In this document: in pieces, positions 1-64,000 of the stretch
Layout: every line of letters starts with the position of its first letter
Numbering within the stretch: the stretch's first letter is position 1
Origin: Bilabrum cf. latius
Lineage: Eukaryota
Direction of reading: 5' to 3'
Assembly: GCA_965178125.1 (NCBI GenBank)
Contig: OZ237739.1
Location: forward strand, 806,001 to 870,000
Length of the DNA stretch: 64,000 nucleotides
Program-made: the position numbers and the translations under genes
Notes under the pieces: model-generated
Seen by the model: the letters and a program-made list of their open reading frames with translations, nothing else
Databases searched by the model: none
Told to the model about the DNA's origin: nothing

Positions 1-2958
1 CTCAACCTCATTGGCTGGCAGCACGGCCGCACCGCCAGGCCCGGCCCGCCCCCAGGCCGGCAATACGATGCCTGCCTCGGTATCAGTGCCGTACACCTGC
101 GCCATCACCGCCTTGTCTGCCTGCTCGTCACCGGACCCGCTGGGGTCACCCGGCATCTCACCAAGGTCTGTCAGAATGGGCACCGCCAGCCGTGTGCGTC
201 TGGTGCCGTGGTACACCGGTGTGGATGATTCGAAGCTCCATGCCAGCAAGAACGGCAGTTCGGAGGTCGACCCGATCGGCACAGACGTGGCACCGGCTGG
301 CAGTCCGGACAGCACGTCCACCGGCACAAACGGGAAGTTCTGCGACTCGGAAGGCAGGAGTCGCCTCGACACGACGCAATGTGTGCTGCCAGAGCCAGCG
401 ATCAGATTCTGCGAATCGCCCCCGCCAAATACTCCGTCCGCGTTGCCACGACCTCCAGCCAGCAGCATGGTGTCTCTCGACACGACCCGCGTGCCATCCA
501 CCGACCCGTCCGAGGACAGACGAGCCACGTTCCCTCCGTCTGGCCGGGGCGGCAGGAACCCGATACCCGTCCCATCAACCAGCGTCACGGCACCGTCCGC
601 ATCCACACCACAAAACATAAGATCTGAATTTCCCATCCCGGTCCCGGCCCCAAATCCCGCCCAGGTGGGCGACGGGTCGGATGCATCACCGAGAGAATCC
701 AGCTCCACGATGATGATCGCAAACTCAACAGTGCCGTCACCAGCGGGGCCGCCAGCCGATGAGCCGGGCACGCCGGCGTCCTCCAGCTCCTGCTCGGTCA
801 ACCCCAGCGGGCCAGCAACCTCTCTGAGCCTGGACGCCGACATGGTCGCAAACGACAGCCGCACGCCCGCTTCGGCGGACCCTTGCCACGCAGCATCGAT
901 GAAAGCGTCTCTGGTCCGGTTGAGAGCCATGGGCTGCCCGTTGCTGCTCTGGGACGCAACTCGATCTGCGGGCGCTGGAATAGCCGACACCACGAATGCG
1001 TCGTCTGGAAGCCCGGTGATCTCGTTAGCGGATCGTAGCAAGGCGGACACGCTGCGGCCCCTAACATACTGCAGCTCCAGGCCAGTCAGCAGCCCCTCCC
1101 TCTCGTACCACTCCGGGTCACCATCTCTTAGAGCGAGGAACTGCTCCTCGAGGATGGCCCGGAACAGAGGACCCACCTCGGGGCGGCGACTACTGCTGCT
1201 GCCTACATTTGACGACAGAGGGGGAGGTGGGCCCACTTCCGTTTCTGCCAGCCCGCCGACGATCAGATCAACCGAGGCGTCCAACGCGTCGGGGCACCCG
1301 CCGTACAGGCTCACGAGATCTGCCACGCGCCGTGGGCTCGCACCCGCACCGAGCACGGTGCTCCACCTCCGTACCTCGCCTGGAGCAGCGGGGTCTCCGC
1401 CCAGGTTGGCTGCATCGCCACCTCCCCCCACCAATCCAGCAGCAGCCGGGCAGCTGGTGTTGGTGAGCAGCTCCAGCGCTTGCTGGGATAGGCCAGCAGC
1501 CCGGGGCAGCTCCCCTCCGCTACTAGAGGTAGGCAAGGGCCCCGCCTCACCCACGAACGATCTCGCGGGCGGGCCGATCCCGGCCTGGTCAGCGGGATCC
1601 ATGTGTTCCCTGTACAGGCGCCTGGCCTCTCCATAGGAAGCCGCGCCCAGGTCCCTGCTCCTGGCGATCGCGAGTGCGACCGCGTCGCCGATGCCGCTCA
1701 CCTCGAAACTGCGGAACCGGGCCCGGATGGAATCCGCCGCGTACAGGCTCGGAGCTGCCGCTTGCCCCACTACCATGCCCCGCAGCAGGGGTGCCCACAC
1801 GTGCCCGGGCCTGGCCCGCTCGGCCTGCACGCCGGCCGGGTCCCTGACCTGCTCGGAGGGGGCGTCCAGCGCCGCCTCAGCCTCGTCTGCGAGCTCCAGC
1901 GGGCGAAACATCCTGGACACGGTGTCCAGGGGGCCGGCAGGGGATAGGCTGCCGTCTTCCCGGAGGCGAAGAGCGGTACCCGGCGTGCGCATCAGGGCCA
2001 GGGCCTGCAGTGTGACGAGTGCCTCCACCCTGGTGTGCGCCTTCGAGGTCGCGTTGTAGCCAGCGTACGGACGGGGCAGCTTCCTCCCCGTCAGGAGGGG
2101 TAGCCACTCCTCCACCGTGATCCGCTGCACAGTGGCCCGCACGAGGCGCCTGGCCCGCTGGAACAGGGCCTCGTCGGGCCACTCGGCGAGGCCGTCCGGG
2201 GGCGGGAGCAGCAAGGCAAGCCAACGAGCCACTCGGTTGTGCTCGATGACCAGAGCCGAATGCAGGGATGTCACCATGTAATTTTCGTTGGCGCGGCGGT
2301 CGCCGGCCACCAGGAGCATCCCAGGCTGCTGCCCGCTGTCTGCGACCATCGGGGCGCTTGCGACGTTGATTGGCAGCCCAGTAGCCTGGGCCGATCGAAG
2401 CAAACCACCGGTAGACCTGCGCATGAACTGGGCAGCTAGACCCTAATATGATACAGATGCATCCAAGAGGCCACGCTCTGAAACCTCTCCCAAATTCGAT
2501 GTTGCTCGCAGAATTGCCTGCAGGTGACCGCCGGTCTCGAGTGCCACATGGCTAGAGTTGAAATTGAAGATGCCCGCTGTCTGACACGTTTGGCTTATAT
2601 TAAGCTGGTCTGCAGGAAGATTCGTGTCCCTGGCGATGCGAACACAGCCACTGAGCGGCGAAGATGCTGACGGGCGGCTGCTGTTTCCGTTGCCGCTTGC
2701 GTCGGCGAGATCGTGCGCAATTAAATACGACCATGCCACATGCAACTGATTCAGTGAATTATAGCTGGGGCGAAGCGTCCCCTGTCCAAATACTGCTGAA
2801 ATATCACTGGCTGCCGGCTCAACCCGAGGGGGGTTCGGCACGAATTGCACGGACGTTTCTCCTTGCAGTCTACCGAAGGGAGCAAGCTCGCTGGCTGTCA
2901 GTGAGATGTAGCTAAAGAAAAGAGTTAGCGCAGCGGCACGAGCCTCAATTTCTAGCAT
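1..2958 (-). CDS. Secreted/membrane protein with an animal-type heme peroxidase-like domain followed by a DOMON domain (3'-partial; TAG read as Gln)
   Basis: ATG at 2958 with a hydrophobic N-terminus. One in-frame TAG at 2443-2445, then the frame stays open to the window edge. Peroxidase motifs: AGDRRANEN..LHSALVIEHNRVA, DEALFQRARRLV..VQRITVEEWLP, ARSRDLGAASYGEARR, ILEEQFLALRDGDPEWYE. DOMON motifs: WAGFGAGTGMGNSDLMFC ... LLAW..VYHG. Confidence 0.75.
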
Positions 2959-3071
2959 ATCTATGGCCCACTGCTGCAAGATATGTGTACACGCCTGCGT
3001 TGGTGACGTCAAGTGGAGCAACGCCGCGCAATTCGAGTTCCGCCGAGCGCGACGGCGGTTGGCAACGCCAG

Positions 3072-5408: not shown

Positions 5409-5673
5409 CCTGCTTGAAAGACTGCACAATGTGTCTAAAGCAGAATAAGCTCGCTCCACAGTTCGATCATCAACAAAAGGTTCGATAAGGTATACACAGC
5501 TCGAGCTTAGACCTGACCTACTGTAGCTGTGATGCACAGTACGGGACACAATGTCTAAATCAGCCTGTTGCACTGCTCACACCAGCAAAGCTGCGGAGCA
5601 GCTGCCGCCGGTGATTGCGCGGCGCCGGTGATGGCCGAGTTCACCCGTGAAACCAGCGGAATAAACAACAAGC

Positions 5674-8055
5674 ATGGCGGCTGCTCATGCGCAAGGCAGC
5701 CATAACAAGCCAGCCAATAAGACTTCTAGTCATTCCCATCCAAGCCCGACAGGTGGGCAAGAGAAAGGAAATGGAAACAGAGCGGCAAAGGCCACATTGG
5801 CAAAGCAGAAGTCCATGCGCAGCGAGGCCGACGAGCTGTCCAATTGGGACTTCATTGTCCATTTTATGACTACGTTACGCCCCTACTTCTGGCCTGACGG
5901 GGTCTGGAGCAAGGTTTTGGCGTTTTCCTGCTTTATTGCGCTTGGCCTATCCAAAGTGTGCAACCTTGTCGGCCCAATCTTCCTGTCGCTGGCTGTAGAC
6001 CGTCTCGGTGAGAGGGTGTAGAATAATAACTTCGGGACGCTGTCAGACCTTGGCGACTGGCCCTGGGAGTCCCTGTGCATCTACGCTGCAATGTCGTTCG
6101 GTGGCCGAGCATTTCTCGAGCTGTAGCGGTACCTGTACCTTTCGGTGAAAGAAGTTGCCTACAGGGAGGTTGCAACGGCCACATATGACCATATCCTGGG
6201 TCTCAGTGCCTCGTTTTTCGTCAATAAGAAGACGGGTGCTGTGATGCGGTCCTTGGACCGAGGGCTAGCGTCAGCTGCCACCGTGGTGGACTACCTGTTC
6301 CTGCGGCTCGGCCCCACCTTTGTCGAAATGGTGGTCCTCACCATTATTGCAAGCCTTCGGTTCGGCCAGGCCGCCGCCGCGTTGTGCCTCCTGGGTGGCT
6401 TCGTGCTCTACGTAGCGGTGACCTTTTACCTGACCGAGCAGAGGAAGCGCATCCGAGCGAGGATGGTCAAGCAGGACAACGCCGCGACGCAGGTGGCCAT
6501 GGATGCCATCAGCCAGATGGACTTGGTGAAGGCATTCAGTGCCGAACAGTTCGAGCTGCAGCGCTACGCTGACAAGGTCCGGACCTACCAGGCCACCAAC
6601 TACGAGACCCAGGCCACGCTCGCCCTCCTCAACTCGACCCAGAACCTCATCCAGTCCGCCACCATGCTCGGTGTCATGCTCCTGGCCGCGCGCACGGTCA
6701 TCGTGGGGGAGGCATCCGTGGGTGACTTCGTCCTGATGCAGACGTACACGCTGCAGGTGTTCATCCCATTGAGCTTCCTGGGCACCATCTACTCCATGGT
6801 CACCACTGCGTTCGTGGATCTCGGCAACCTCGCGGGGCTCCTGCAGCAGCAGCCAGACGTGCAGGACAAGCCCGGCGCCAAGCCCATCCGGCTGCCTGAG
6901 AGAAATGGGGCCAAGGGCGCGGGGCCGCGCATCGAATTTAAGGACGTGGACTTCGGCTATCCCCTGTACTTTGAGTCCGCGCACGAGACGGGCCCAGGGA
7001 ACAAGGCAGCAGGCGGTTCCAAGGGCAAGGGCGGCGGGGCGGCGGCCAGTGCCGCTGCCTCCAAGACGGTACCAGGCGACGGCGCCGATCTCGAGAAGGG
7101 CCAGGGGAATGGGAAGGGGAAGGGGGAGGGCGCGGTGGAGTCCCACGTGAGGCGCGTGCTGCACGGCGTGTCGTTCACCATCGAGCCCAACACCACCACG
7201 GCCCTCGTGGGCGCCACCGGCTCCGGTAAGAGCTCCATCACCCGGCTGCTGTTCCGGTTTTACGACGTGGACAGCGGGCAGGTGCTCGTCAACGGACAGG
7301 ACGTGCGAGACGTGCAGCAGAAGTCCCTGCGGAGCGCCACCGGGCTGGTGCCCCAGGACACGGCCCTGTTCAACGACACGATCATGTACAACCTGCGGTA
7401 CGGGCGGCCCTCTGCCACCGACGAGGAGGTGATGCAGGCCGCCAAGGCCGCCCAGATCCACGACTTTATCTCTAGCCTTGAGCTGGGTTACAACACTAGG
7501 GTGGGGGAGAGGGGCCTAAAGCTCTCTGGGGGAGAGAAACAGAGGGTGGCCATCGCGCGCATGCTGCTCAAGGACCCTCCCATCGTGGTGCTGGACGAGA
7601 GCACATCTGCGCTGGACTCTGTCACCGAGAGGCGGGTGCAGCAGCAGCTGGACAGCATGGCGGGAGGCAGGACCACCATCGTGGTGGCGCACCGCCTCTC
7701 CACCATCCGGGGCGCGGACCAGATCCTCGTGCTAGACCAGGGCCACGTGGCGGAGCGGGGCACCCACGCTGAGCTGGTGGAAATTGAGGGGGGGCTGTAC
7801 CAGCGGCTGTGGAGCGAGCAGCAGCAGGCAGAGGCAGAGCTCGGGGCGGGGGAGCCCGAGGTGGGCGTCGCTGGCGCGGAGGTGGTGTCGATCGACGTGG
7901 ACGGCGATCAGGGCCAGGGCCAAGGCCAGGCGGGCGAGGCCAAGCCGGAGGCCGCGGCAGCGGGTGAGGTGAGGGCCAGGGGGAGTGGGCCTGCGGGTGC
8001 TAGTGGGGACGCGAGCGCTGCCAGCGATGTTGCTGGCGGAGGGAAGACCGACTGA
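5674..8055 (+). CDS. ABCB6/HMT1/ATM1-type half ABC transporter
   Basis: LRPYFWP N-terminus, transmembrane domain, Walker A GATGSGKS, LSGGEKQR, LDESTSALD. In-frame TAGs at 6019 and 6124 (FLEL*RYLYLSV). Ends in TGA. Confidence 0.9.
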
Positions 8056-9645: not shown

Positions 9646-11797
9646 TCACATCTCGTCGTCGTCCATTCCGGCGCTGCCCATATCCATGGCATTCGTGTGG
9701 GACTCGTCCTCGTCCTCGTCCTCATCTCCCTCCATCGCCTTGGACCCGCTCGCCGCCCCGCTGCCGTCACCGCTGCTGGCCGCAGCCTGGAAGCTGATCT
9801 TGCTTGGGCCCGAGGACGCCGACTTGAGCTTGAACCCAGCCACCTCGCCCGCGGCGGCCGCCCGATCCGCGGCCGCCTGCTTGCCCTCCTCCCTGGCCTT
9901 GGCCACTGCCTCCACCCTCGCGCTTACCATCGACTTCGACAGCCCGAACCGCAATGGGCTGCACTCGAGCGAGTCCAGGTCAACCAGCACAGCCTCGCCA
10001 GTGCGCCGGAAACTCGGCACCGACACAAAGAGCGACTTGCGAGAAGCGTCCCCGTGTCCCAGCGCGCCGTCGGGCACCTGCGGCGCAGCACCGCTCACCT
10101 CGACTGCGCCGAACCCCGGCTGGCTGCCTGCAAACACAACGTGCGGCTGGGTCTCCGCGTCCTCTGACTCCATCACGAACGGGTCAGTCTGGCTGAACGG
10201 ATAGCTTGCCAGCGTGTCGGGGGCCGTGGGTGCCAGGTGCCTCCACATGCACGTGTTGGCCAGCACGCGGGCCCTGGACAGGCCCTCCCCGGCGCCGAAC
10301 TCCCTCACGCCCTCAGAGGCACCGGTGCTGCTGCTGGTGCTGGCGCTGCTGGAACCCGCCCCTGAGGACGCGGGTGGGACGTCCGCCCCATCGTCGGTCA
10401 TGGGTGCAGAGCCGCTCCCGCCACCCGCAGGCGCGCCCCCAGAGGCAGCCAGCGTGGCGGGCAGCAGCCCCCGGGCCGTGGTGAACCTGCATATGTCGTC
10501 CACAGGCTGTCCCCCGTGCCCCAGCAGCCTCACCCGCCCTATCTCGCACTCGTGCGGGTTAGAGGCCAGCACCACCATCCCCTTGGAGGCGTATCGCAGG
10601 GTGCGCGGGAGGTTAACGGGCATGAGTGGCTGCTGCGGCATGGTGAGGTTGGTGAGGTCATCCTGCCCCGGGACGATGTCCACGGGGCAGGACGCGGCCA
10701 CCTGCGAGAGCCAGAGGTCTGCCTCCTGCATGGGCAGGGCCAGGCGCTGCTGCTCCGCAAGGGACAGCGCCTTGGCCACCAGGGATGCGTCTTCGTCCTC
10801 TCGCACCATGTTCCCTGCCACGATCACCCGGCAGATCTTGGCCGCCCCCGCGATCGCGCCGGGGGGGCCCAGGCAGCCCATGATGAACTCCAGCAGCATC
10901 TGCCTCGGCAAAGGGTCGCAGGCACCGTCTCCGAACCCGAGGTCCGACACGAGAAGCACGCTTCCCCGTCCGGCCCCCGCCCCGCCAGCCGCGCTTGCGC
11001 CACTCCCGCCAGAGCTGCTGGCCGACGACGAGGCAGCGGAAGACGAGGACGAGGACGAGGACGAGGACGGCGCAGCCCCTGTGCCAGCCGCAGGGGAGAG
11101 GCTGCTGACAGCGGGCGGCAGGGACAGGCCGGAGAAGGCGATCGCGCTCACCACCAGGGCGCCCGCCGCGTTCACCGTGCCTCGCACGGCTGCGCCCATC
11201 CCTGTGACCACTGCATCCACGGGGAGACTGAGGCCGCCCGCACCCTCTGACTCGAGGGAGATGCGACCGGAGGTGTCCTCCAGGATGAGGGAGTCGTCCT
11301 CTGAGCAGAACGAGCTGCCGTCTTGCTTGCCGTCAGTCACTGGCGTGACGCCCTGCGGAGAGGAAGCTAAGGTTGGATGCGCGTCTCAACTTTGCACGGG
11401 CGGGGCAGCGCGACGAGCAAGTCAGCAGGCAAGTTTTACTCACGTCAGCACTGAATTCGTCGAGAGCACTCGGCTTCTTGGCCTATTCCTTGTACACTGT
11501 GCCGACCACGACGCGCTCCTGCCCCTGCCGCAAGTCGATCACCCGGTCCAGTATTCTGGCCTCACTTTTACCGGGCTAGGCCGCAGCAATGCGCTTGGCG
11601 GCCTTCATGAGATACGGTCGCAATGCCCGAACCCTCCGCACATAAATGTGATTGTACTGGCGCTCAAATTTCCTTTCTCGAATGACATATCTTCCAAAGC
11701 AAGGTCTGTAGGGCTGCACAAGGCGGTCTACCTTGGAGTCGGTAGAATCCGATTTTGATGAGTCCAAAGGATCAAACGATTTGCCAGGTTTCTCCAT
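9646..11797 (-). CDS. POLD2: DNA polymerase delta small subunit (one intron, 11353-11443)
   Basis: Motifs RQYNHIYVRR, VVGTVYKE*AKKPSAL, DDSLILEDTSGRI, PQQPL, HLAPTAPDTLASYPF..DPF. A GTGAGT..CCGCAG intron restores the frame. TAGs at 11576 and 11483. Confidence 0.92.
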
Positions 11798-12070
11798 AAA
11801 CTCATCAGAAGAGGGTGCACTGCGAGGTGCAAATGTCGGATTGGCACTGAGCGGGCCGTCGTGCAAAATTTTAAGATCGTCGCGCAGCAGTAACCCAACT
11901 AAATACGATCGTATACTATACTTAGTGATATAATGGTCTCACGATCGGAGGGTCTCTAAGGCCATGGTGCAAGCGGGCAAAATAGTGCACTGTTTTGAAT
12001 AATTCAGTTTTCCCTGTCAAACCACACGCAACCACATTGTGACGCGACCGCGCGCGATTGGGTGCTCGGG

Positions 12071-12351: not shown

Positions 12352-14469
12352 TCACTGCCCACCCCTGCCGACCGCTGGCGACCCTATGTCCAGGTCGTCC
12401 AGCGCAGACGGCCTCGATCCCGCACCGTTGCCCAGCGTAGGGGTGGGGAGGAGGCTCCTGGCAAGGGGAGAGTCCTCCGCCAGGCCGGCCTCTCTGGCCT
12501 TACGACTGCTCGCGTCTGACGCGCGGGGGATGCGCTGGGCGCCACCGTCGCTGCCCGCGTACGTGGGCGAATCCGCCCCGCTAATGCCGACTGCCAGCCC
12601 GCTGCCACCCCGCCCGGCGCCAATCCCCTGCATCGAGTAACCAGACACGCTGCCCCGCTCGGCCGCATCCCCAGCACCAAGCAGGCCCTGTTTCTCCGCG
12701 TCCTCCTGCGCCTTCTTCAGCAACACCAGCTGGGCGGCGCTCAGGTTCAGCTTGGGGTGCTCCTCGCACGCATCCACCGCGTTGAGGGCCAGCCCGCTCG
12801 CTGTGCCCGCCACACCCGCCGCGATGAAGAACACCTCCACGCACGTGTACGTCTCCGGACAGCTCGCCTGCAGCCGGCCCACTGCGAGGGGTACGGCCGC
12901 CAGCCCCAGGTTCTGCACCGCAGTGACCAGACCGTATGCCGTGGCGGCGTACTCCTCGGGCACGACCAGCGCGATCGAGGGCCAGAGGGCAGAGGCGTAG
13001 ATGCAGTAGGTGAGACCAAGTGTGACGAGTGGCAGGACGGGGTTCCAATGCGTGAATCCGAGGGCCGTGTGCACGAGGGCAATCATCACGGCGGCCACGA
13101 CGTTGAGGCGCGCCCTCTGCCCCAGGTTGTCGATGGCGGCCCCGAGGAAGGGGGACAGGGAGCCCGCGGTGAGGTAGATGACCAGCATGTACGTGTTGGC
13201 AGTCTCGTCTTCAAGGTCCCACTTGAGCTTGAGGAAGTCGCTGGCGATGTTGTTGAAGGGCAGCACCGCGCAGTAGACGGTCAGGCAGGACAGGGTGAGC
13301 ACCCAGAAGGTCGCGGGGAAGGTGAAGATGGCCCGCAGGTCGATCGTCTCGTCCTCCAGGCCCTCCTTGTCCGGGTCATCGTCATCGCCCATCAGCAGGC
13401 TAGACGCCTCGCTCGTCCGTCGATCCGGTCCCGGGGCCGTGCTAGAGCCCGAGCCAGGCTTGTCGCCGGCTCCGTTGCGGAGCCGCAGCTGGCCCTGCTC
13501 GGTTCCGCTCGCAGCCGCGGCGGCGGCGCCGCGCAGGTTGCGGGATGCCCCGCCGTTGGCGGTCCTCCTGAGCGTCTTCCTGTTCTCCCTGAGCACCTGG
13601 ACGGCCGCCACGTCGATGTAGTAGGCCCATATGGCCGCGCCCAGCGACATGACGCACACCAGCACGCCCGCCCACAGGGCCCACGCCATGTTCAGGTGCT
13701 TGGCCAGGGCAAGCGAGGCCTCGTCGTTGATCACCGACCCGTACCTAGCCAGCGCCAGGTTGACTCCGAGCGCCAGTGCGATCTCCTTTCCCTGAAACCA
13801 CTGCGCGATCATGGCAGACATGCTCACCGACAACGACTCGCCGCCGAGGCCGAACACCACGCGGCCGAACAGCATGATGCCCCAGGCGACGTTGTCGTCC
13901 TCGATTGTGATGCCAACTGCAAAGATGATCTACCCGATCAGGATGAGCAGGGCAAAGATCACGGTTGTCAGCCGCACGCCCCAGAGGTCGCTAAAGTAGC
14001 CTCCCAGCAGGGGAAGCACGACGTTGGGCCACGAATAAACGCTGTACAGCGAGTTGTAGAGCAAATTATACCGCTTCTAGCCTATTCTAGGGATGTAGTA
14101 CGGACCCATCTGCGAGCAGCAATGAACAGATACCGGACAACACAACAGAGTGAGATTGTTCTTGGCGACATCTCCGCGGTCGCCAAATCAAGGCCCTTTG
14201 CTCACCACAACATTGATCGCCGTAGGAATATCATAGCAATAATAGCTGCCAATCAGACCGAGACACAATAGCACCAGAATCTTCCACCGGTCTGTCAAGT
14301 GAGGGCGCTTAGTTGGGAGCGCAGGCTCCGTGCAAACTCCTCCGACCAGCGCGAGCCTGGCTGCCTCAGCATCCTCTGGAGTCCGAATGGAAGAATCTCC
14401 ACCATTTACATGAAAGTGATTCTTGCCATCCAAGACAGTGTACGTCGCTGCATCAGCAGCTTCAACCAT
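12352..14469 (-). CDS. MFSD1: MFSD1-like lysosomal major facilitator transporter (intron 14110-14205)
   Basis: Motifs GSYYCYDIP, LYSVYSWPNVVLPLLGG, LILIG*IIFAVG, GRVVFGLGGESL, WFQGKEIALA, TAYGLVTAVQNLGLA. TAGs at 14077 and 13930. Confidence 0.9.
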
Positions 14470-34291: not shown

Positions 34292-34447
34292 GTTTGGTCT
34301 TTGTTGCTGGCCAATGGCCATCCAATGGACTTCATCGTGCAATGCAGCTTCAGGAAGACTGTTGCGTGCTATTATCCGATATAACTTGCTTGAAACTGGC
34401 CGCCAACTGCGTTTGGCATCCTGCACTGAGTCCTTACATTTTTCACG

Positions 34448-36287: not shown

Positions 36288-36379
36288 ATTTTCCGTGAAC
36301 AAGCCATACAAGCAATGACTAGCCATTCAAAATCTATCAATATCGCTTGGAAAGCACGGCAATTATTTGTATTCCTTGT

Positions 36380-46500: not shown

Positions 46501-46534
46501 AGACATCATCAGGCTACAGTTCGGCGCCATACAT
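40538..46534 (-). CDS. NTE1: Neuropathy target esterase / NTE1 (PNPLA6/7) lysophospholipase: cNMP-binding domains plus patatin, about 2000 aa, intronless
   Basis: All minus-strand ORF fragments from 46534 to 40550 share one frame separated only by TAG. Three cNMP-like segments, then [17 protein letters not shown] and LVDGGY patatin motifs. Ends TAG-CTG-CAT-AAG-TAA. Start uncertain. Confidence 0.88.
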
Positions 46535-50300: not shown

Positions 50301-51536
50301 CGGGGCGCGCGTCAGGTGACAGCATATCGGCCCGAGCCTGGAGCTGCGTCCAGCCAGGGCTCGTCACTATTCGGCGTGCCTATCGTTGCAGCGGGTGAGT
50401 CGGCCCTGAGCTCAGCCGAGATGCGACAGGTCCGTCGGTCCAGGAAGGCTCACACCGTGCTGCACGGTTGGAACGTCAAGGAGCCACAAATCGCAGCTTG
50501 GCCGACCAAGCAGGGCAAAGCCAGCATCAAGATGGCTGATCGCTCGCTGCGATCTAGAAAGCGCAAGGCTGTCAAACCGCGCTCCGATGCCGACTATCTC
50601 ACGATCCGCGCTGCATGGATTGAGGGCGAGGTGCTGGCTGCGGCTCGGTCTGTCGTCAGGAAGGTGTCATCGCAGGATGGAGCTGCACTAGCAATCCCTG
50701 CAGTCCCTGGGTCTTCTGCAGCAGCATCCAACAGGCGGGATTCATACTTGGCGGACAAGCGAGACATTGGTGGAGCAGCTGAAGCTCGCCCGTCGTCAGA
50801 CGATGCTGCAAACAGCGCGACATCTCTACGGCGAGATGGTTCAGACAGCAAGTCTGGAGGCAGCAATGCAACCATTGCGCAGCGGCCAAGTCAGCAAACA
50901 GACTGGCTTGGTCATTTGCTCAATGACGGCAAGAAAGCAGCAGCGCAGAGAAGCTCGACAGTATCGACAAGGCCGCCCTAGAGCCGTCGACAGCTCCTAC
51001 AGCTGGCACACCAAGTCCGCAAGGCCCGGCACAACCAGGGCACTGCCACCATACGCGACGAGTTCTCCATGCGCTCAGAACACGAGCGCTTGCAGAGTGC
51101 AATGGTCGCCGAGTACCGCAAGCTGGACAAGCCCAGAGTTGGCGACCAAGACGCGATGAGATTCAAGTGGATCAAGGCGCAGAAGGCAGCGCGAGCCCGC
51201 CTGCTGGAGAGAGGCACAATCCTGCCCATGGGCATCGCCAACAGCATGGACGAAGTTGACATAAGCGATATCTTAGAGCAGTGGACTGTGCCTGGCAGTT
51301 CCTTAGGTTCCAGCGACGCGCGCACACCATCGCAGTCAACGTCCAAAAGGCGCCGCACCATGGGCCGCTCCAAATTGTCCATCCCGGGAGCACGGTCGGC
51401 TTTGGTGGCGAGCAGGTCATTGCTGAGTAACTCCATGATGGGAGGCTCCCAGGGTCACGCTGGCGGCTCTTCTTCCATGGAAGACGAGTTCTTGCTGTCG
51501 CTATCCCAGGGTCTGCAGCACTCGCTCGAGCAATGA
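47364..51536 (+). CDS. Hypothetical protein, about 1390 aa
   Basis: Seven listed ORFs lie in one frame separated only by TAG, with a terminal TGA at 51534. No family recognised. Confidence 0.7.
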
Positions 51537-53326: not shown

Positions 53327-53430
53327 GAATGTCCCAGAGCGTCGTTCATGAAATAGCAGCGCAGATGACGAGCGCAAAGCTGCATCGGCGAGCATGCATG
53401 CAAAGTGGTTGCCAGATTTAGTTTTGTCAA

Positions 53431-56400
53431 ATGAGCCACACACCAGATGGACTTTTAAGATTCCGGTCAAGCTCCAATGTCAGCTGCCTAGTTAACGTCG
53501 ACTCTGCACACTCCTCCGAAGGATCTGGTCGAGCAAATCGTGGCAGGGCTGCAATCGTCGCGGCTGACGGGGCTGCATCGCCGCTACGACAGGCTGTGGT
53601 TTCTGTTATGTCTTTCTCACGTCTACTCATTCACTTGTAGTGGAGGAAAACTCGCCATCTGGCTTGGAATAGCCACATGTTGCACCTCCCGTGGTTGCAG
53701 CAGGACGATGCACGGATTGTAGCTGTAACAGTGCACCCCGCAGTATCGTGCTTCGCAATTGCGAGATCAAATGGTGATTTAAATTTGGTCCGATTGGATC
53801 GCCTGTTTGAGCTGGCTGAGAAAGCAGCTTCCGCAATAGTGCAGCCTCGGGTGTATGGCACCAACGCAGCCAATCGATCTGCCTTGATCAGAGCGCGCGC
53901 TGGGCGGAGGGGCACGGCTTCTGAAGATCAACACGAATCATCTGGAGCGATTGGGCGGGTTACACGGAAGAAAGGCGATTTGTCGCACCTAGGCCTGCCG
54001 AGGCCAGGCGACAAGCAGTCTGCGTCGCCTGCAACCCTGAAGCGCAGGATCGCCGAGATGCGCAGCGGTCTCACAGGTTCCCGACAATCAAAGTACGATC
54101 CGTATGGGATCGCAAGAGATCATGTTGACGCTGATGGCGCGCAGTCGCGGCAAAAGAGAGCTGCGGTGGGCCCGGTGGGAGGGTCGTATGCCATTGGGAC
54201 AAGCCAGGGCACTGCAGCGAGCATCAAGGCATTTTCGGCGGCGCGAAGAGCCGCCGAAGAAGCTGCGATTGCCTTGCATGGACAGCAAGCCGACCATCGG
54301 CAGGCTCGGCGCGGGAGACTCCGCGGCCCCAACAGGTTGGGCCCAGGCGCAGGCTTAGGGGCTGGAGGTGGCATGCAAGGAGTGGGAGAAGCAGCACCAC
54401 AGCACCGAGTGACGTGGAATCCGCCCCTTGAGGCCCCCGAGCACGTTCCGTTGCGGATCCAGGCAGCGGAGGGCTCGGGCGGGGTTGTGATCCCGACTCG
54501 ACTGGCATGGTGGCTGGTAACACCCTCGTCCGATGGGCGGCTGGACGAGGCGGCTGACGCGCAGGACGTGGAGGACTCACGGGCCAGTGCGGGGATCGGA
54601 AGCGGGTCTTCTCCGTCCAATGGATCTGCAGCCGCGTAGGCAGATGACTCTGCTCGCGGACGGTCGGTTCTCGTGGTGGGTGGGTCGAGCGGGCAGGTGT
54701 GTCTGCTGGACTGCAACGAGGTTTGGCGGAAGGCCATCGCCACAGTCAAGGCGGGCATGGCTGCCACCACGGCATCGGGAGTTGGTGGCGCAGACTCGGG
54801 AGACCATGCCGAGCCGCAGACGCCAGGGGCAGACTGGGGCTTGCAGGTGCTAGGCTTGGTGGGCCTCGGGACGCCTTCCACCTCGTAGCATGACCTGAAG
54901 CAGCAGCCGTCAGCGCTGTCGCTGCCCGGCTCATCCTCCTCGCTGTCGCTTCTTGGAAGCCGCCCTGCCTCCGAAATGGGCTGGAAGTCGTTCACGTGGC
55001 GGCACGCGGCGGCGCGGGCGCTTGACAAGCCCCTGATCGTGTCTCCGGCGTGGAGCGTGGCTGGCAGCGACATTGGGCTAGAGAAGAGTATTGTCGACAT
55101 CCAGCTGCAGGATTACCGAACGTGGACCCTGGTCGGGAGGGTGGAGAATCGCACTGGGGGAGAGGGGGGCGGTGCAGGAGCTCGTCACCAGTACGCGGTG
55201 GACGGCGATGTGGTCGTGCTGGTGACTGTGGCAGGGGGCGAGCAGTGGACCTTGCCGCTGGAACTGTCTGCTTCACGGCTGCAGAGGCTTGAGGAGAACA
55301 GCAGTAGAATAAGGCGCATGTCCACCCCTGCAGAACCGGGGGGCCAGACGGTCGGAGAGAATCAGCAGACTGCGGTTGACCTTGGAGGATCGGATGACGG
55401 CCTTGAGCTGCGGCCAGGCGTGGACCTGCTGGGCATCCGCATGCAAGACATGCAGGCAGCTGCAGAAGCGAGGCAAAGCCAGCAGGACGCTTTCGATCGA
55501 GATGACGGAGACGGTGATCGTGGCTCCTAGATTGGCTCAGTCTTGTCCAGAGGAGGGGACTCTGTGGCCAGCCACCTTCGCAAGGGCAGGTCGATCGCGG
55601 GGGCGCGCTCCGTCGCTGCCTTCGGGCCGCGATCCCGAGGGTAGCTAGGGCGCACTAGTGCATCCACGGATGGACCTGGTGGGGGCTCTTCTGCTAGCGT
55701 GGCTGCTCCGTCTACAGCTCAGCTCACTGGCAGGGGTCGCAAGGTCCGTGCTGCCCGTAGACCTGTCTCAAGCGCTGGTGCTAGGGGCAGCACAGGAGCT
55801 ATGGAACAATCACTCAGTCGAGGGGGAACCAGCTTCCGAGTACCAAAGTTGCCTCCGACCCGAGAAGAGCGGAAGGCTATGCTTACCGCTGGCCTGCTCC
55901 CGCAACCTAGGCTGTATATCGTCCCAGGGTGGGAGGTCCTCTCTGCTCTTGATGCGGCCACAGAGTCGGGGCAGGAAGCTGAGGAAGCCGCCCAGTATGG
56001 TGCCGTGCTAGTGCGCATCGACCAGCTGTGCACGCGGTCCAAGGCTGACAACCACTTTGGAATTCATCGCACAACGGGCGACCTCTATCCGTCCCGCAGA
56101 ACTGGAAGCGGACGGTCCAAACAGACTTCCAAGCAACAGCTAGTGTGCGTTGATCCCACGTCAGCTGTGGTGCGAATCGCAGTCAGCGAAAAACACGGCA
56201 TTGCGGCGCTATCAATCCCATCGGCGGTGGCTGAGGTACCCGACCATCCGCTGGTGCCCAGCTGGATGCAGTCCGGCTTCGAGCCAGGGCAGACCGAAGC
56301 AGCCCAACACGAAGGAGCAGAAGGTTTTGGGACAGACGGAGGACGAAGCAGCCTGCTCGTTAGTCTGCCGGACCACTGCCAGCCGCTTCTCCCTGTCTAC

Positions 56401-58611
56401 CATCGAGATTAGAAGCGGCGGGCATGCGTTGCCGTGCACAGACAGGTGCTTTGGGCACCTCTTGCAACGCGGCTGCACCCACGAAGGCCGGACCTGCTTT
56501 GTGGAGTACCGCTGGGGCGGGTGTCAGCTGGTCGCGTAGTGGCCCAGGACGAGGAGCGCATGGACTGGGCTAGGTGTGTGCTAGAAGTGCTCCAGCAATG
56601 TCGAGAGCTGAGTAGCCTGGCGGCCAGGTCTGGTGTCCTTGCTCTGCAGAGAGAGGCCCTGCAGAGGCTGCACAGCGTAAGCATGCGGAGTGTTGAGGTT
56701 GTGGCAGCGGCCAGCTGTCAGCCGGGCTTGCGCGCTCTCATGGACGTGCCTGCCGTAGGCGTGCTCAGCCTGGCAGGCGTCATGCCCGTCGTGATCGCCA
56801 GCTCCAGCACCTCGGGGCGGCGTGGGGACATCGTGGACGAGGAGGTCATCGCAGTGGGGGGCAGCCAGCGGCCCGTCCGACGTATGATCGATGGAGGAAT
56901 TCAGCTGGATCGAGAACTGTTCGAATCCATGGATTGCTTCGGTGCAGCAACTCGTGCCGATGCTTCAATGCTGGAAGATGCCATCACGAAGGCCTCTCGG
57001 TCGGTTCTGGATCCTTCCGTGCAGATAATCAGGCTACCAGCCAAAGTGGGCACTGTGCGAAGCATCGGGAGCATTCGCGGCCTGCCGGTAGCCCCCGCCT
57101 CCATCCAGGCAGTCAGAGAGTGGTCAAAGGCCCAGGGGTCCAGCACTCCAATGCACGACGCAGGTATTGGGAAAGACGCAGACAAGCCCCCGCAGAGCAG
57201 GCTGCTTGTGCACGCCTCACGCGGGCTGATGCTCCTGGAGAGCAGCAGCCACCCGGACACGGTTTTGGCAGACGTGCATGCTGGCAGGCAGATCGCAGAG
57301 GCAGCCCTGCAGCACCTTGAGGATGTGGAGACCGCTTGGCACGTTGTATTGTGTGGCATCTTGGGGAGAAGCAGCTCTGGCGATTCGTTGCACCTGTTCC
57401 GCATCGTGGGGCTGGAGTGCCTCCGATTCGCGAGAGATTGCAGCGAGGGCCAGAGCTGGGCAACGGATGGACGGGGCGTCGGCTCTATCGCAGCAAGTGC
57501 ATCGAGCGGGAGTCCCGCGGGCGCATCGTATGGATTCGTATTCAAACGGGCTGGCCTCGCCTGGAGTCGCAAGGTGGACGCTGCGGTCGAGCTCGGTATC
57601 CTGGCGATGCTGGCAGCAGCGGAGACAGACGCGTTTCCGGGCGGGCAACTGCCTCCTGATCCGATCGTGGATGTGCTGGAGAGCATCAAGGCTACTAGTG
57701 CCAGCAGCGATGCTGGAGAGGCGAGCCTGGGTGCTGCGCGCAGCATGGCAGGCGAGTCACCCTCACGAGTGTCACACCACCTGCGGATGGTGGGCGTGGC
57801 GCAGCAGCTGGCTCGTGTATCGACTGCCCTCGGCTCGCTCCAGCCGGCCATGGCCCTTCTGGCCGCAGCATCGGGGACTGCCGCCCCCCTAGCATCGCCA
57901 TCTTCTTTCTTCTTGCGTCTGCTTCGGCGGTGGTCTGCATCCCATGCCCCGCCCACAGAGCAGCTCGACGCCGCCAGGGCCCGTCCATCCGAGGGTTTAA
58001 GGGCGCGGCTGCCTGCCCTGCTGCGGGGCATCACCGCGGCCAACGGGTTTCGTATGGGCAACGGAGCGGCAGGCAAGGCAGCCGCTGCTCTAGTGCAAGG
58101 GGCGGGCGCGCTCGCAGAGTACCTGCACCCAATCACTTCCCTCCCCAAGGTGCCTGCGCAGGCAGCAGCATACGAGGTGGCGATGGCGGTGGGCATGAGG
58201 GCAGCGCGGCTAGCCGTGTCGCAGTCCGCCTCCAAGTATCTCAGCAGAGTGGGTTACCCTGAGAGTCTGCCTTTAGTTCTGCAGCGGCTGCTGCTAGAGC
58301 CAGATGCTGCACTGCCGCTGTCTCTTCGCCAGCTGATGCGGCAGGCGGCGCTGCAGCATGTCGGTCTGCTGAGGGCCGGCAGCGAGAGGTTGGGCAGTGG
58401 CGGAGGTGGTTAGATGGATGACTATGAGCAAGCTGGCTGGTGGGAGGTGGTCGAGGCGTGGATCGGCATGTCTGGGGGCCATTCCGCCGCAAGGATCAGT
58501 GCAGCTGTCGCCCGGGCGCGTAGGGGCCTGCGAGCTGCCGACGGAGCTGCAGTGGCGAAAGGGTCCAGCTCGGTGCTACAGGAGATCATCTAGTGTGTTG
58601 CCGATGATTGA
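53431..58611 (+). CDS. Large hypothetical protein, about 1726 aa, with a possible N-terminal beta-propeller
   Basis: Six listed ORFs lie in one frame separated only by TAG, with a terminal TGA at 58609. WD-like strands (VTVHPAVSCFAIARSNGDLNLV; VLVVGGSSGQVCLLD). Confidence 0.7.
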
Positions 58612-58726: not shown

Positions 58727-61202
58727 ATGGATGCCGTTCTAGGCCATACAACAAGCCCAACTTAGCGAATGGACTGGCAGAAAGAATTTCGTGATGACAT
58801 TGAGGATGGTGAGATTGCATGCTTCGCAGCTGTAAGGCAAATCGTCGCTGCAAAGACCGCAATAGATAACTAATACAAGCGATGTGCCCCTTGCAGGAAG
58901 GCTAGGAGACGATGGCCAAGGAGCTGGTAATGACGATGGCACTAATGAACTACATTCAGCATATGCTGCCACAGAAAGCAGCACTCTTGACCTGAGCAGC
59001 GTTCTTGGTGCTGGCGCGGGCCGCGGTGGCAAACAGAAGGGCGGCAAGAAGGGTAAAAAGGGCAAGAAAAAGAAAAAAGACCGGGTTGCAAGCCGAACGG
59101 TGGCTGAAAGCACAATGGAGACTGCTGGTATGGGCTTGTTTGGCTCTGCTGCGCCGGAAAGATCGACACAGGTACTGTTCGCCGCGACTGCGGTGTCTGA
59201 ATCATCGCGAGCTGCCGCTGAAGAGCGCCATCGCGAGGCAACACAGCGCGCTGCTGCCTCCAGTGTGGCTGCAGCTGCAAGTAATGGCGCTGCATCAGAC
59301 CTTGGGGCTGCGTTTGAGGGGCGAGCCGACCCGATGGCAAGCGCAGCCGATGCTCCAGCCACGGCCGCCGAAATGCTGCTTGCTGGTGGGCCTGGCGCCG
59401 TCCTTCGCGGTGGCCCCCAGGGCAGGGTACGACGTGGTGGTCGAGTGGAAATACGAGAGGCCAGAGATGCCTTGCCAGACGTGCCTGAACTTGTCCGCCG
59501 CAGCCTCGCCAGCGCGTCACACCGCACCCCTCTAGCGCTCGTGGTTGCCGGTCATGTGGACGCTGGCAAGAGCACGCTCATCGGCCGCATGCTGTATTCT
59601 CTGGGCCAAGTTGGCGCCGCCACGCTCAGGAAATTCCGCAGGGAAGCGGAACGCGGCGGTAAGGGTTCCTTCGCGCTGGCGTGGGTGATGGACGCGGGAG
59701 GGGACGAGAGGGAGAGGGGCGTGACGGTGGACGTGGGGATGGGCTAGATGAGGATCAAAGGCAGAGATGTTGTTCTTCTCGATGCCCCCGGGCATGCCGA
59801 CTTCGTACCGAACGCCATTGCGGCTGCCGCAACGGCAGATGCTGGCCTGCTGGTGGTCCCTGCCCCTCACGGTGACTTCAAGCGTGCCTTTGCTACTATG
59901 GGGCAGACTCGGGAGCACGCCTGTCTTCTAAGGGGCCTTGGATGCAGGCGTTTGATCGTGGCAGTGAACAAGATGGATGCATGCGAATGGTCCAAGACCA
60001 GGTTTGATGCGGTCGTGGCCCGTGTGACAGACTTTCTCAGCCACGACGCCGGCTGGAACGTGCAGCGCGACGTTGCCTTCGTCCCTGTGAGTGGTTTCCT
60101 AGGCAGCAACGTGGTAGAGCCGCTAGGGCAGGCTTCCTCGCGGCCTGACTTAGGATGGACGGCACCCGCAGCCTCAAAGGAGGCCTCCGTGGGCTCTGCC
60201 GAGAGACCCGAGGACGAGGGGTCCATGGCATCTGGCGGCGACGCTCCCGAGCACGCGGAATCGGTGGCTGCGATGTGGTACGCCACTTACTGCGAGTCCG
60301 TGGTGGCGGAAGGCAAGTCGAGCATACTGACCGGCAGCCTGCCTGGGCCTGACGGCAGACCGCGGGGTCCCACTTTGATCGAGTGCATCGATGCGTTGCC
60401 TTCTCTTCCTACGGAGCTAGTGCTTGACCCGCTCCGGCTAGCTGTCTCTGATGTTCGGAAGGAAAGCAGCGGGGCGGTGTTTGCCACGGGCCGAGTGACG
60501 AGCGGGTGGGTGCAGCAGGGTGACAAACTTCTGGCGCCTCCTGCCGCTGACGATGTGATGGTCAAGGCGGTGAAGCCTCTACAGGTGGTTGCGGATGATT
60601 CGGCCGAAGGTTTTGCAGCCTACATGGAGTCGGACGCTTCCGCTGGTGCGGCTATGGGTGGAGTAAGCGAGGCGGATGCATTGAGAGATGCTGCAGGAGC
60701 CCTGTGGGGCGGCAAGAAGTTCAAGCCTTGCGGACTGGTTGGGCAGTTTGTTGAAGTTCAGCTGGGTGGGACGTCAGCTGTTGGTTTGCGCAAAGGTGAC
60801 GTCCTCAGTTGGGTTGCCAGCCCCGTCCCTGCAGCTGGAGAAATCAAGGCTCTTCTTCGGGTGCTCCCAGCGGCAAAACGAGGACCTCCTCTGGTGGAGG
60901 GTCTGCGCATGTCGCTTCACGCCCACAACTGTGAGACTCTTTGCAGCTTCACGAAGGTTGTGGCATTGGTTGAGCCCGGGGCATGCGTGGAGCACGGCGA
61001 CTTTAAGAAAGGGGGCGCAAAAATGCTGGGGAACAGAGAATGGCTGCAGGTCAGAATACGCCTGAGCAACCAGATCCCCCTCGTTCCTGATGGCGACAAG
61101 GCTGGTGCGGCGCATCCTCTCAGCACCTTCGTGCTTCGGTACAGCAACTTGACCGTAGCGGCAGGTCTAGTCATTCGCACATACGCCGGAGAACCAGTAT
61201 GA
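58727..61202 (+). CDS. HBS1: HBS1-like translational GTPase (ribosome rescue); probable intron 58809-58896
   Basis: [56 protein letters not shown]. The G domain is split by the TAG at 59745. Ends in TGA. Start approximate. Confidence 0.85.
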
Positions 61203-61358: not shown

Positions 61359-64000
61359 TCACTACCCAACAAGCGTGGATGGCCTCGGCGGTGCGTCAGG
61401 CCTGCTGAACTTGTACAGCGCATACGCTTTCCCGGCATCGATGCAACGGGACACTAGCCACTTCTGGTCGGCTTGGGTTGACCCGTCCCAGGTTGCAGAT
61501 TCATCTACCGCCAAGGAGTGATTGGAGCTCGAGCTGGCCTGGGCTGTCGCACTCAACACGTCTGCCTGAGCGGTGCCGGCACTACTACTATTGCTACTGC
61601 TGGTGCTGCTACTACCGGCGCCGTGACTGGCGCTGCTACTGCTACCACCGATCTGTGCATCTGCTCTTGCGCCAGAAGCTCGAGTTGAAACCGGGCTAGA
61701 GCCCCTGGAACCGCTATCGGCTGGCGCTGTCGGCCTCACACGTGGTGCACTAGATGCAGGGATCTGTACTGTTTCCCCAGGCGGCGCTTGCAGCATCGAT
61801 GCAAGGGCGGGAAGCTATGCGTGAGCCACGTCTTTGGGGGGTAGCCTTGGCGACAACGCATCGAGACGCGGGAGCGTGAGCATGGCCTCGAGTGTCCGAA
61901 ATGGTAATTGAGCTGCTGCTGCGGCCGAAGTCCCTTCGACGCTGCCGCTACAGCTGCCGCCTAAGACGTCGACGTCGCAATCTGTTTCCGTATTGCTCAG
62001 CGATACCTCGCGCAAGTGCACCTAGTCTGCTACGGCGGCCCAATCGCGTACTGGATCACGCAAGCAATCGGGGTCGGACTGCTTGCGTTTCGGTGTCGAA
62101 TGGCTTCCGTGCGACACGCGGGCCGAGCTTGCATCTGGACTAGGAGTGGCGTTGCTCCCGGCAGCCTTGTCGACCCTGGCTCGCTTGGAGTTTGGTGCTG
62201 GAGATTCCGCCGATTCAGAACTGCTCCTGCTGCGCTTGCTGGGCTGAGTACGACCATTGCCTCCCGAAAATACGACCTGCATCAGTCCATCGCCCTGCAC
62301 CTCTTTTCCAACCACCCTGACAACTCTCTGCGGGTTGGTGTCACCGCTACCGGCCCCTTGCTCTTCAATGCCTCCAGCCCGCGCGACACCCAGCGATCGC
62401 AGCAGCACTGCGTCTTCTGCCGCGTCATCGACGACACCTGCAGCCGCACCTGCAGCTTTCATGGCCTCCTCGCTCCTAGGCTTGCCAAAGTTGTTCTTGC
62501 CCGATACCTGCAGCCCCAGGTTGCTGCCCAGCATCAGGGCGTGGGCCTGCTGCACGCGGTGCAGCCGGTCCAGCACTCGGTCCATCACCACGGTGCCGTC
62601 CTCAAACACGGCGTCCTACTCGTCCTCGCCCTCCTCGTACGCCTCGTTGCGGTTAACCACGTCGAAGCCCGAAGGGAACATGGGTCCTGCAAAGGTCTCA
62701 GACCTGCGCGGCATGAGCACCCAGGGAGCCCCAGTGTCGGCGATGAAAACGATCTGGTTCTTCGAGGGGTTCGATTCTACGCACGCAGCATCGCCGCTGT
62801 AGGCAGGCAGTCGTATGCTGTGCATGCTGCCTATTGCTCCTCGCTGGAACAGAAACACCTGGCCTGCCTTCACTCCCGTGTCTCTTGGATCAGGCAATGC
62901 AATCACCCATCGCTGGTCAGGCGACAATGCAGCCTGCGCCAGAGTTGTGCCATCCACGGGGTCAGCGTATGTCTCCTGCGCTTCAAGCTCGCACCCGCTG
63001 GAAGATTCGGCGCTGGTCTCCGTCTTAGCAGCTGCGTCGTCCTGTGCCGTGGATGATGCGCTGGAAGCGCCTCTGCTACTTGCACTGGCCCCAGAGGCTA
63101 CACCTAAGGCCTCAGGCTTCGCGACAATGTCACGCTCGGTGCATGTAAGCACGTGTACACCTGACTTGTTACACAGCAGGGCCACTGGGTCACCCCACTG
63201 GAACACGCTGTCCCGGCCGCTGCCTGCAGGCGCGCCCGATACCTCGCCATGACCAAGAGGCGGTTCCACCTCGCGGAGAGTTGGCGTCCCAGACGATGAA
63301 GCGGTCGGACTTACACCTAGCAGCGCCAGACTGAACCCGGGATCTGCTGGAGGTACTGGGCCTCGAGCTCTGGTCACGCTCACCTCCACCAGCTGGTGGT
63401 CCCGCGTTGCCAGAAGCAGGGTGGCCGAGGGAGGCTGCAGGGCACTGTCGGGATCGCTATCCGCGGCCATGCCTTTTCGGCGCATCCATGCTACGGATGC
63501 CCCGGCTGCGTCGGAGCCAGGTGCCTTGCGATGGGCTGCACTGGCAGGGGCTGTTTCAAAGGCGGCATCGTGCGGCTGCGATGCCCCGAGGCTGCCAAGG
63601 TCCACAGGGACGATTGACGCTCGGGATATCGAGCGGACTGGCGGCTATACAAGGCAACCTGGGCTTCCAACTCCTGCTGCCACTTGCGCCCTTGCAGCGA
63701 TGGCAGTCTTGGCACGTGCCAGCCCGTCAGGTTTGAAATTGATGACATGTGGGGGACCTTTCAGCAAAGTGCAAACAAGCAGGCCTGGTTCTCGTGGGTG
63801 CACGCATATCGACCGGATTCCAGAGGCCACTCTGCGAAGTACGATATTATGAAACAACAAACAGCGCGGCAGAGATTTGATTCTCGGTTCTACATGGCTG
63901 ATTGTCACGGGCGACGTTGCAGCCAAACGAAAGGCCTTACTTTGCGGCCCCTAGCAGCGATCCATCCTCAGGATCAATTGCACCAATAAATCCGTCTCCT
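61359..64000 (-). CDS. RBBP5/Swd1-like WD40 protein (5'-partial)
   Basis: One frame from the window edge across TAGs (63951, 63645, 62616, 62022, 61815, 61362) to a TGA. WD strands, then ETFAGPMFPSGFDVVNRNEAYEEGEDE*D and later DCDVDVL, resembling the RBBP5 acidic segment. Confidence 0.6.

Follow-up and report, generated by a model that had tools for sequence, protein, structure and literature searches.

In-frame UAG is very probably read as glutamine in a bicosoecid-related stramenopile

Nuclear genetic codes that give UAG and UAA different meanings are very rare, and PMC5304391 and PMC11687900 list them from a single fornicate, a single rhizarian, one genus of green algae and a few lineages of ciliates. 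In Iotanema spirale (Fornicata), UAG specifies glutamine, and UAA and UGA are stops (Panek et al. 2017, PMC5304391); that report gives a T32G change in the GTS motif of eRF1 and postulates a cognate tRNA-Gln(CUA). The ciliates in which UAG alone has become glutamine are Protocruzia tuzeti and two phyllopharyngean lineages, as stated by McGowan et al. (2024, PMC11687900). According to the same authors, other changes of UAG alone are found in the rhizarian exLh (Leu) and in Scotinosphaera (Ser), and codes in which UAA and UAG both mean glutamine (table 6 type) occur in many ciliates, Hexamitinae, Ulvophyceae, Streblomastix and Amoeboaphelidium. We analysed a stretch of 64,000 nucleotides from Bilabrum cf. 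latius (contig OZ237739.1 of assembly GCA_965178125.1, positions 806,001 to 870,000; hereafter the window), the genes of which contain TAG in frame. The results make it very probable that UAG is a regular glutamine codon in this bicosoecid-related stramenopile and that only UAA and UGA serve as stops, as in NCBI table 15.

In-frame TAG codons in genes and spliced transcripts

Open reading frames (ORFs) were delimited from stop to stop on both strands with a threshold of at least 800 amino acids. Under the standard code a single ORF reached this length, whereas 11 did when TAG was read as sense; the corresponding numbers were one for TAA and three for TGA. With TAG read through, the longest ORFs were 2025, 1760, 1408 and 1349 amino acids, and reading TAA alone as sense lengthened none of the ten longest. 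All 22 recognisable genes contain TAG in frame, about 105 in total. Counted from the first ATG, 22 ORF segments hold 102 TAG, 572 CAG and 139 CAA in 17,452 codons, which gives UAG a share of 0.58% of all codons and 12.5% of the Gln codons, with the limit that some TAGs close to 5' ends may fall in untranslated regions (UTRs) or unverified exons. Beyond this count there are three TAGs in exons 1 and 2 of CCT3, one in the tail of SPCS1 and one in the first exon of HBS1. Two segments are free of TAG (the last exons of CCT3 and POLD2), and other exons of both genes have it. These numbers lie far above chance and thus confirm the observation of the first-pass annotation that nearly every gene here has in-frame TAGs, dozens in total; every gene in fact has at least one.

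The long ORFs represent ordinary eukaryotic genes, among them a haem peroxidase, SPRTN, XAP5, a mitochondrial carrier, GNAT and TMEM17, and six had no Pfam match. The Pfam domains that span the TAGs or lie downstream of them are An_peroxidase, SprT/SPRTN, ABC_membrane with ABC_tran, XAP5, POLD2, MFS_1, Dus, Mito_carr, GNAT, Cupin_8/JmjC, TCP-1, TMEM17, DUF6259, three cNMP domains with patatin (NTE), and GTP_EFTU (HBS1). Two of these genes carry much of the evidence below. CCT3 (T-complex protein 1 gamma) lies at 34448..36287 on the plus strand (Pfam TCP-1, E 5.5e-125; stop TGA) and consists of three exons (34448-34537, 34632-34842 and 34972-36287). The NTE/PNPLA6-7-like lysophospholipase, with three cNMP-binding domains and a patatin domain by Pfam, occupies 40538..46615 on the minus strand; its ORF of 2025 codons includes 21 in-frame TAGs and closes with TAA at 40538-40540, and one 5' intron lies at about 46544-46638.

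We then compared contigs of four runs from three studies with the window: X1, and X5, X6 and X7 from the two other studies. Run X1, even in depth and with the introns retained, behaves as DNA. The X5-X7 contigs join over GT..AG introns in the mitochondrial carrier, JmjC, SPCS1, CCT3, TMEM17 and NTE genes; for CCT3 the joints appear in contigs of X5, X6 and X7, and its introns are not spliced out in X1. Since the X5-X7 contigs are joined across introns that X1 retains, they derive from spliced RNA, an assignment that rests on the spliced contigs themselves, since none of the listed runs is recorded as RNA and the guess at the kind of run labels X5 'probably DNA'. In the contigs of X1, X5, X6 and X7 no difference from the window was listed at any TAG site. 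The spliced transcript contigs keep all 21 TAGs of NTE and all three of CCT3: the spliced CCT3 mRNA with its TAGs is covered by three contigs, and one spliced contig (X5 record 14) covers 40484-46543 with no differences and includes every NTE TAG. The only contig differences from the window fall in a high-copy intergenic element, at 39,951-40,109.

Because the TAGs are the same in the DNA run and in the spliced transcript contigs, editing, splicing-out and assembly error are unlikely causes. The wider explanation that the code is unchanged, with assembly error, RNA editing, removal by splicing or pseudogenes producing the TAGs, is so improbable that it can practically be dismissed. Nothing was found in its favour, and the only thing to set beside it is that a standard-code gene caller truncated the JmjC protein (P0364). 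The sequence is identical in contigs of all four runs, spliced transcripts retain the TAGs, conserved domains continue past as many as 18 of them, and a second species, described below, has the same habit at different sites. UAG as a sense codon, the claim of the first-pass annotation, was therefore upheld by an ORF fusion that is specific to TAG and by spliced transcript contigs that keep all the TAGs they cover; the retention of UAG in RNA, which that annotation had proposed as a check, is what contigs X5-X7 display.

The residue at UAG

Four proteins (CCT3, MFSD1, NTE and JmjC) were aligned to database homologues with X placed at each TAG, after near-duplicates had been removed by a 4-mer filter. 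For CCT3, 66 of the 120 listed matches were used (lengths 515-600, redundancy-filtered). The TAG at codon 22 (34511..34513, plus strand) faces Q in all 60 filled rows and corresponds to the Q of mammalian CCT3 in the PDB alignment. At codon 86 (34797..34799, plus strand), just before the DEEVGDGTT motif, Q stands in 65 of 65 filled rows and also in the yeast, bovine and human CCT3 chains of the PDB alignment. The third TAG, at codon 12 (34481..34483, plus strand), falls in a variable column (N 41, T 6, S 4, Q 3). The MFSD1-like MFS transporter (ORF 12352..14187, minus strand; Pfam MFS_1; its homologues bear the name MFSD1) has two in-frame TAGs and was aligned with 80 of the 120 listed matches. 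At residue 86 (13930..13932, minus strand), the 'IGQ' column, 67 of the 77 filled rows have Q, as does, with identical flanks, the relative P0244 (75% identity). The positions in CCT3 and MFSD1 that had been named as Gln sites on first reading are thus borne out.

The NTE alignment took 26 of the 120 listed matches, the ten nearest homologues being P0004-P0014. The TAG at residue 1429 (42329..42331, minus strand) occupies the second x of G-x-S-x-G, the lipase motif of the patatin domain. Each of the ten nearest homologues has Q in this column, and the 16 remaining rows, from animals, fungi and others, have I, M or V. Residue 748 (44372..44374, minus strand) faces Q in four of the ten nearest homologues, and residue 1208 (42992..42994, minus strand) faces Q in the three closest rows. 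Of the remaining aligned TAG columns of NTE, seven are variable and four are gaps. In JmjC (149 representatives, self-hit dropped) all five TAGs stand at variable or gappy columns and give no information on the residue. When log-odds (ln) were summed over the 19 of 24 TAG columns that were at least 70% filled, Gln scored +11.9 and every other residue was negative, with Thr next at -9.9, followed by Ser (-13.7), Glu (-15.4), Lys (-19.9) and Leu (-22.0).

A partner test independent of this tally came from a close relative. A scan of metagenome contigs with the last CCT3 exon yielded a 9.5-kb contig (L001) whose CCT3 is 94% identical to that of the window in protein and 82.6% in nucleotides. Default megablast gave no match between L001 and the window, and blastn with short words showed synteny, the order CCT3, TMEM17, DUF6259, NTE being common to both, with the 3' two thirds of NTE present in L001. 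Under the standard code the DUF6259 and NTE genes of L001 are shattered; with TAG as sense they form ORFs of 990 and 1294 codons with 23 and 15 TAGs, respectively. Its 2,737 codons include 38 TAG, 69 CAG and 22 CAA. A tRNA scan of L001 found no tRNA gene. As an observation on codon usage, TAG makes up 1.4% of the codons and 29% of the Gln codons in L001:2392-9472 (minus strand), 2.4-fold the window value by codon share, and the DUF6259 orthologue has 23 TAGs in L001 and 6 in the window.

In the codon alignment of the two species, 44 sites have TAG in one species only, and the partner is CAG or CAA at 18 of them. The other partners are Ser (6), Gly (4), Ala (4), Arg (3), Lys (3), Asp (2) and one each of Tyr, Glu, Thr and Met. 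Of the 14 sites with local identity above 0.67, 12 have Q as the partner, and the other two have K and M. NTE residue 1429 is CAG in L001, residue 1208 is CAA, and at residue 748 L001 also has TAG. One site has TAG in both species, against about two expected under independence, so the shared sites hold no information on the age of the change. For comparison, these alignments give a conservation of 0.48 for ordinary Gln codons and rates of 0.014-0.042 for the pairing of other residues with Q. When an empirical substitution table is applied, Gln leads Ser, the next best residue, by 45.8 ln units over the 44 sites. TAG thus behaves as one more Gln codon in both species, and the use of UAG for glutamine would be common to the organism of the window and at least one related species. 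The deep columns and the partner test both select Gln, as the first-pass annotation had thought most likely, and on these comparisons UAG almost certainly stands for glutamine.

That UAG is a sense codon for another residue is extremely unlikely, whether Ser (its meaning in Scotinosphaera), Leu (its meaning in the rhizarian exLh and some ciliates), Glu, Lys or Tyr. Precedents do exist (PMC11687900), one TAG lies inside a Ser run in the SPRTN tail, and Ser is the second commonest partner in L001. The scores given above put Ser far behind Gln in the partner test and place Ser, Leu, Glu and Lys below zero in the deep columns, and the invariant columns of CCT3 and MFSD1 are all Q. Serine and leucine as meanings of UAG were rejected on the deep-column log-odds together with the partner test.

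Several observations weigh against glutamine as the regular meaning of UAG. Many TAGs stand at variable columns, with N at CCT3 codon 12 and T, A or a hydrophobic residue in part of the NTE and JmjC columns, and MFSD1 residue 37, also in a variable column, is K in the 75%-identical relative. In PDB alignments one TAG of the ABCB6-like transporter is aligned with R of human ABCB6 and its second TAG falls in a variable loop, one TAG of POLD2 faces M of yeast Pol31 and human POLD2, and the TAG in the G domain of HBS1 faces K, H or T in a variable column; the TAG columns of GNAT face G, K, R or T, and its 'FQ' site is outside the stretch covered by the aligned chains. These four alignments have one to five distant chains each and are neutral on Gln. 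The contigs compared above are assembled ones, in which minority variants are hidden. TAGs at variable columns are expected, given a Q-to-Q conservation of no more than 0.48 from one species to the other, and columns away from Gln are what a normally evolving Gln codon gives; yet it is a minority of sites that are individually informative.

The other CCT3 loci of the metagenome scan (L002-L080) include none close to the lineage of the window and were not used as evidence. Stops inside the tblastn matches occur in 48 of the 80 CCT3 loci, and most of these interrupted loci (41-58% identity) look like introns or TAA-rich, ciliate-type codes. In L012 and L017, with CCT3 about 58% identical to the query, a single in-frame TAG lies inside a long tblastn match, for which an intron or a code variant is possible.

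UAA and UGA as probable stops, and TAGs close to the ends of genes

Twenty-one genes have their 3' end in the window; 20 of them end in TGA and one (NTE) in TAA. In CCT3 and DUF6259, TGA stands at the same aligned end position in the window and in L001. Because 20 of 21 genes end in TGA, its positions are conserved in two species and reading TGA as sense fuses few ORFs, UGA is by all appearances a stop codon. For TAA, the 64 kb of the window and the 9.5 kb of L001 were sampled. We found no in-frame TAA in the 17,452 window codons and none in the 2,737 codons of L001, against about 25 and 12 (about 37 in total) expected from the CAA:CAG ratio; it must be held against this zero that it arises partly by construction, the ORFs having been delimited by TAA and TGA, and that it relies on no gene being split at TAA. 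Among the window genes checked, none was split in this way. Four TAAs form the 5' boundary of real ORFs, and these are located in the 5' UTR (ABC, TMEM17 and DUF6259) or in the GTAAGG donor of the HBS1 intron. This evidence, which is indirect but coherent, suggests that UAA is still a stop, as the first-pass annotation had proposed, though with less certainty than attaches to UAG as glutamine.

A code of the table 6 type, in which UAA and UAG both mean Gln and TAA is merely rare in a GC-rich genome, is very unlikely. TAA is indeed the rarest of the three trinucleotides in the window (470, with TAG at 970 and TGA the commonest at 1564), only one of the 21 genes ends in it, and UAA and UAG usually change together, as PMC5304391 and PMC11687900 state. 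The absence of in-frame TAA from both species runs counter to such a code, as do the lack of any real gene split at TAA, the failure of TAA as sense to lengthen any of the ten longest ORFs and the TAA that ends NTE.

Some TAGs stand close to the terminal stops. In four of 20 genes the TGA or TAA that closes the ORF is preceded by a TAG at a distance of 1, 3, 4 or 6 codons, whereas 0.70 genes are expected (Poisson P = 0.006). The stops concerned are at 40538-40540 (NTE, 4 codons), 51572-51574 (3 codons), 58609-58611 (6 codons) and 61359-61361 (1 codon); in the other genes, 40 codons or more separate the last TAG from the stop. The NTE gene of L001 has two TAGs near its end, at 6 and 8 codons from the TGA. 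These stop-proximal TAGs may be relics of former TAG terminators that have survived where a back-up stop stood close behind, in which case the other genes would have switched their stop. They also count against a fully regular Gln codon, and may leave room for some residual termination at UAG.

This leads to the possibility of an ambiguous code, in which UAG is read as Gln inside genes and continues to end translation close to the 3' end in some mRNAs. Position-dependent ambiguous codes for other codons are found in Condylostoma, Parduczia and Blastocrithidia. Besides the excess of TAGs 1-6 codons before the stop and the two in the NTE gene of L001, the ends of transcript contigs agree with it: in two or three runs they lie 30-55 nucleotides past the stops of CCT3 (36288-36324), JmjC (31168-31214) and NTE (40484-40537), which hints at very short 3' UTRs in these genes, although contig ends cannot prove transcript ends. 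Working TAG terminators, however, would leave the next TGA or TAA at random distances, and the distances seen are either at most 6 or at least 40 codons. Moreover, TAG occupies invariant, essential Gln sites of a highly expressed chaperonin (CCT3), and no gene of the window needs TAG as a terminator. We therefore regard the ambiguous code as unlikely, though less so than the other alternatives, and retain UAG as a regular Gln codon with UAA and UGA as the stops.

Gene content, placement and comparison with known codes

The first-pass annotation had named CCT3, POLD2, DUS3, HBS1 and SPCS1 among the genes that TAG read-through rebuilds. All five are in the window and bear TAGs, the first four being recognised by Pfam and SPCS1 by its spliced translation. 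Along the window, an ABCB6/ATM1-like half transporter (5665..8055, plus strand; Pfam) has two in-frame TAGs in its membrane domain. POLD2, DNA polymerase delta subunit 2 (9646..11938, minus strand; Pfam), is split into two exon ORFs with two in-frame TAGs in the 5' exon, and a DUS3-like dihydrouridine synthase (14705..17731, minus strand; Pfam Dus) has three. An ORF of 1349 codons with ten in-frame TAGs and no Pfam match follows at 21146..25195 (plus strand). The gene at 33300..34420 (minus strand), which from a reading of its spliced translation, not from a family search, we take to be SPCS1-like, has three exons with introns known from transcript joints, one in-frame TAG in a Lys-rich tail and a TGA stop.

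The JmjC/Cupin_8 protein (31215..32864, minus strand; Pfam) includes five in-frame TAGs. A copy in a public protein collection (P0364) is 336 amino acids long and, at 100% identity, breaks off immediately ahead of the first in-frame TAG; it is a product of truncation by standard-code gene calling, which suggests that the code went unrecognised when the record was made.

The DUF6259-domain secreted protein (ORF 37089..40040, minus strand; Pfam) has six in-frame TAGs. Between it and NTE lies the element at 39914-40460, where the depth of run X1 is 745-1260 compared with about 34 in the flanks (20-40x). This element is a high-copy dispersed repeat with several variant positions, at which many contigs break; it gave no tRNA, no Rfam match and no internal repeat beyond one pair of 15 nucleotides. 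Two further long ORFs without a Pfam match, of 1408 codons (47310..51536, plus strand; 14 in-frame TAGs) and 1760 codons (53329..58611, plus strand; nine in-frame TAGs), lie on the far side of NTE. The latter and the divergent ORF at 51572-53479 (minus strand) overlap by about 150 nucleotides at their 5' ends (53329-53479) under stop-to-stop delimitation. The last exon of an HBS1-like GTPase (58836..61202, plus strand; Pfam) has two in-frame TAGs, and the reading of exon and intron places an upstream exon at about 58720-58830 (plus strand) with one TAG, followed by the GTAAGG intron.

The GC content of the window is about 0.60 and ranges from 0.47 to 0.68, with 0.47-0.54 at 28000-36000 (GNAT, JmjC, SPCS1 and the 5' region of CCT3) and 0.57-0.68 elsewhere. 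The introns are conventional GT..AG introns of 72-323 nucleotides. TMEM17 has a role in cilia, and its presence suggests that the organism has a cilium.

The best named match of CCT3 is Cafeteria roenbergensis (71% identity), followed by Phytophthora, Chrysoparadoxa, Hondaea and Rhizochromulina. A maximum-likelihood tree of this single gene was built from 33 rows picked from the top matches (recognisable named sources and the best unnamed ones). In it the query and its 94%-identical relative form a pair with 100/100 support, and this pair falls with Cafeteria roenbergensis and three unnamed lineages in a 90/94 group, apart from oomycetes plus ochrophytes, a labyrinthulid and animals. On this one gene the organism is tentatively a stramenopile near the bicosoecid Cafeteria, which is in keeping with the bicosoecid-like stramenopile guessed on first reading. 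The CCT3 of Cafeteria (P0126) and 15 other nearest full-length CCT3s have Q or a gap at the TAG sites and never an interruption; since Cafeteria and its neighbours use an ordinary Q there, the change would be confined to the lineage of the query.

As for the mechanism, UAG would be decoded by a tRNA-Gln(CUA), most simply a mutated copy of tRNA-Gln(CUG); such a tRNA is one mutation away and would read UAG and not UAA. The glutaminyl-tRNA synthetase would have to accept the changed anticodon, and eRF1 would have lost or weakened its recognition of UAG and kept that of UAA and UGA. This route, through tRNA-Gln(CUA), synthetase acceptance and a change in eRF1, is set out in PMC5304391. Decoding must be efficient, because one gene of 2025 codons needs 21 UAGs to be read, and this gene together with the invariant Gln sites of an essential chaperonin makes leaky read-through insufficient. 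A tRNA scan and an Rfam scan of the 64-kb window found no tRNA gene and no Rfam family, and eRF1 is not among its genes.

A full-text search of open-licence papers and bioRxiv found no nuclear reassignment of UAG in a stramenopile, and within that literature the suspicion of an undescribed reassignment, raised in the first-pass annotation, was sustained. It is possible, and we suggest it only tentatively, that this is an independent, undescribed change of UAG to Gln, the first change of the nuclear code in stramenopiles, present in a small bicosoecid-related clade of at least two species and perhaps still settling. The change may still be settling because relic TAG stops persist, TAG use differs 2.4-fold between the two species and some 3'-proximal termination at UAG is possible. 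If this were true, the organism would serve as a non-ciliate model, GC-rich and amenable to culture, for tracing between close relatives how UAG became uncoupled from UAA, and a stramenopile case would add a new supergroup to the codes in which the two codons are split. With a GC-rich genome, ordinary introns and a standard-code relative already in culture (Cafeteria), comparisons are possible that could address the origin of tRNA-Gln(CUA), its acceptance by glutaminyl-tRNA synthetase, the eRF1 changes that drop UAG and not UAA, and the fate of genes that ended in UAG. There is also a practical consequence, in that annotation under the standard code truncates most proteins of this organism, as has already happened to the public JmjC copy.

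Compared with the described systems, the organism of the window resembles Iotanema (PMC5304391) in several ways: the same codon has gone to the same residue in a flagellate that is not a ciliate, UAA is kept as a stop, and the assignment likewise came from conserved Gln columns occupied by in-frame UAG. Unlike Iotanema, an anaerobe of the Metamonada, it is a stramenopile with mitochondrial carrier and ABCB-type genes. It shares with Protocruzia and the phyllopharyngean ciliates, as given in PMC11687900, that UAG means Gln and UAA has not been reassigned to Gln; those are alveolates, whereas the CCT3 tree puts this organism with Cafeteria, and it contrasts with them in its 60% GC and its GT..AG introns of the length given above. 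As in the codes in which UAA and UAG both mean Gln, a stop codon has been captured by Gln, likely by way of a mutated tRNA-Gln, but UAA is reassigned too in those codes, whereas here TAA is absent from the reading frames of the window and ends one gene. Like exLh and Scotinosphaera, it is a non-ciliate in whose nuclear genome UAG has parted from UAA, and it differs from them in the residue, Leu and Ser being rejected here. The code itself is therefore already known, from NCBI table 15, Iotanema, Protocruzia and the phyllopharyngeans, and what would be new is the stramenopile host.

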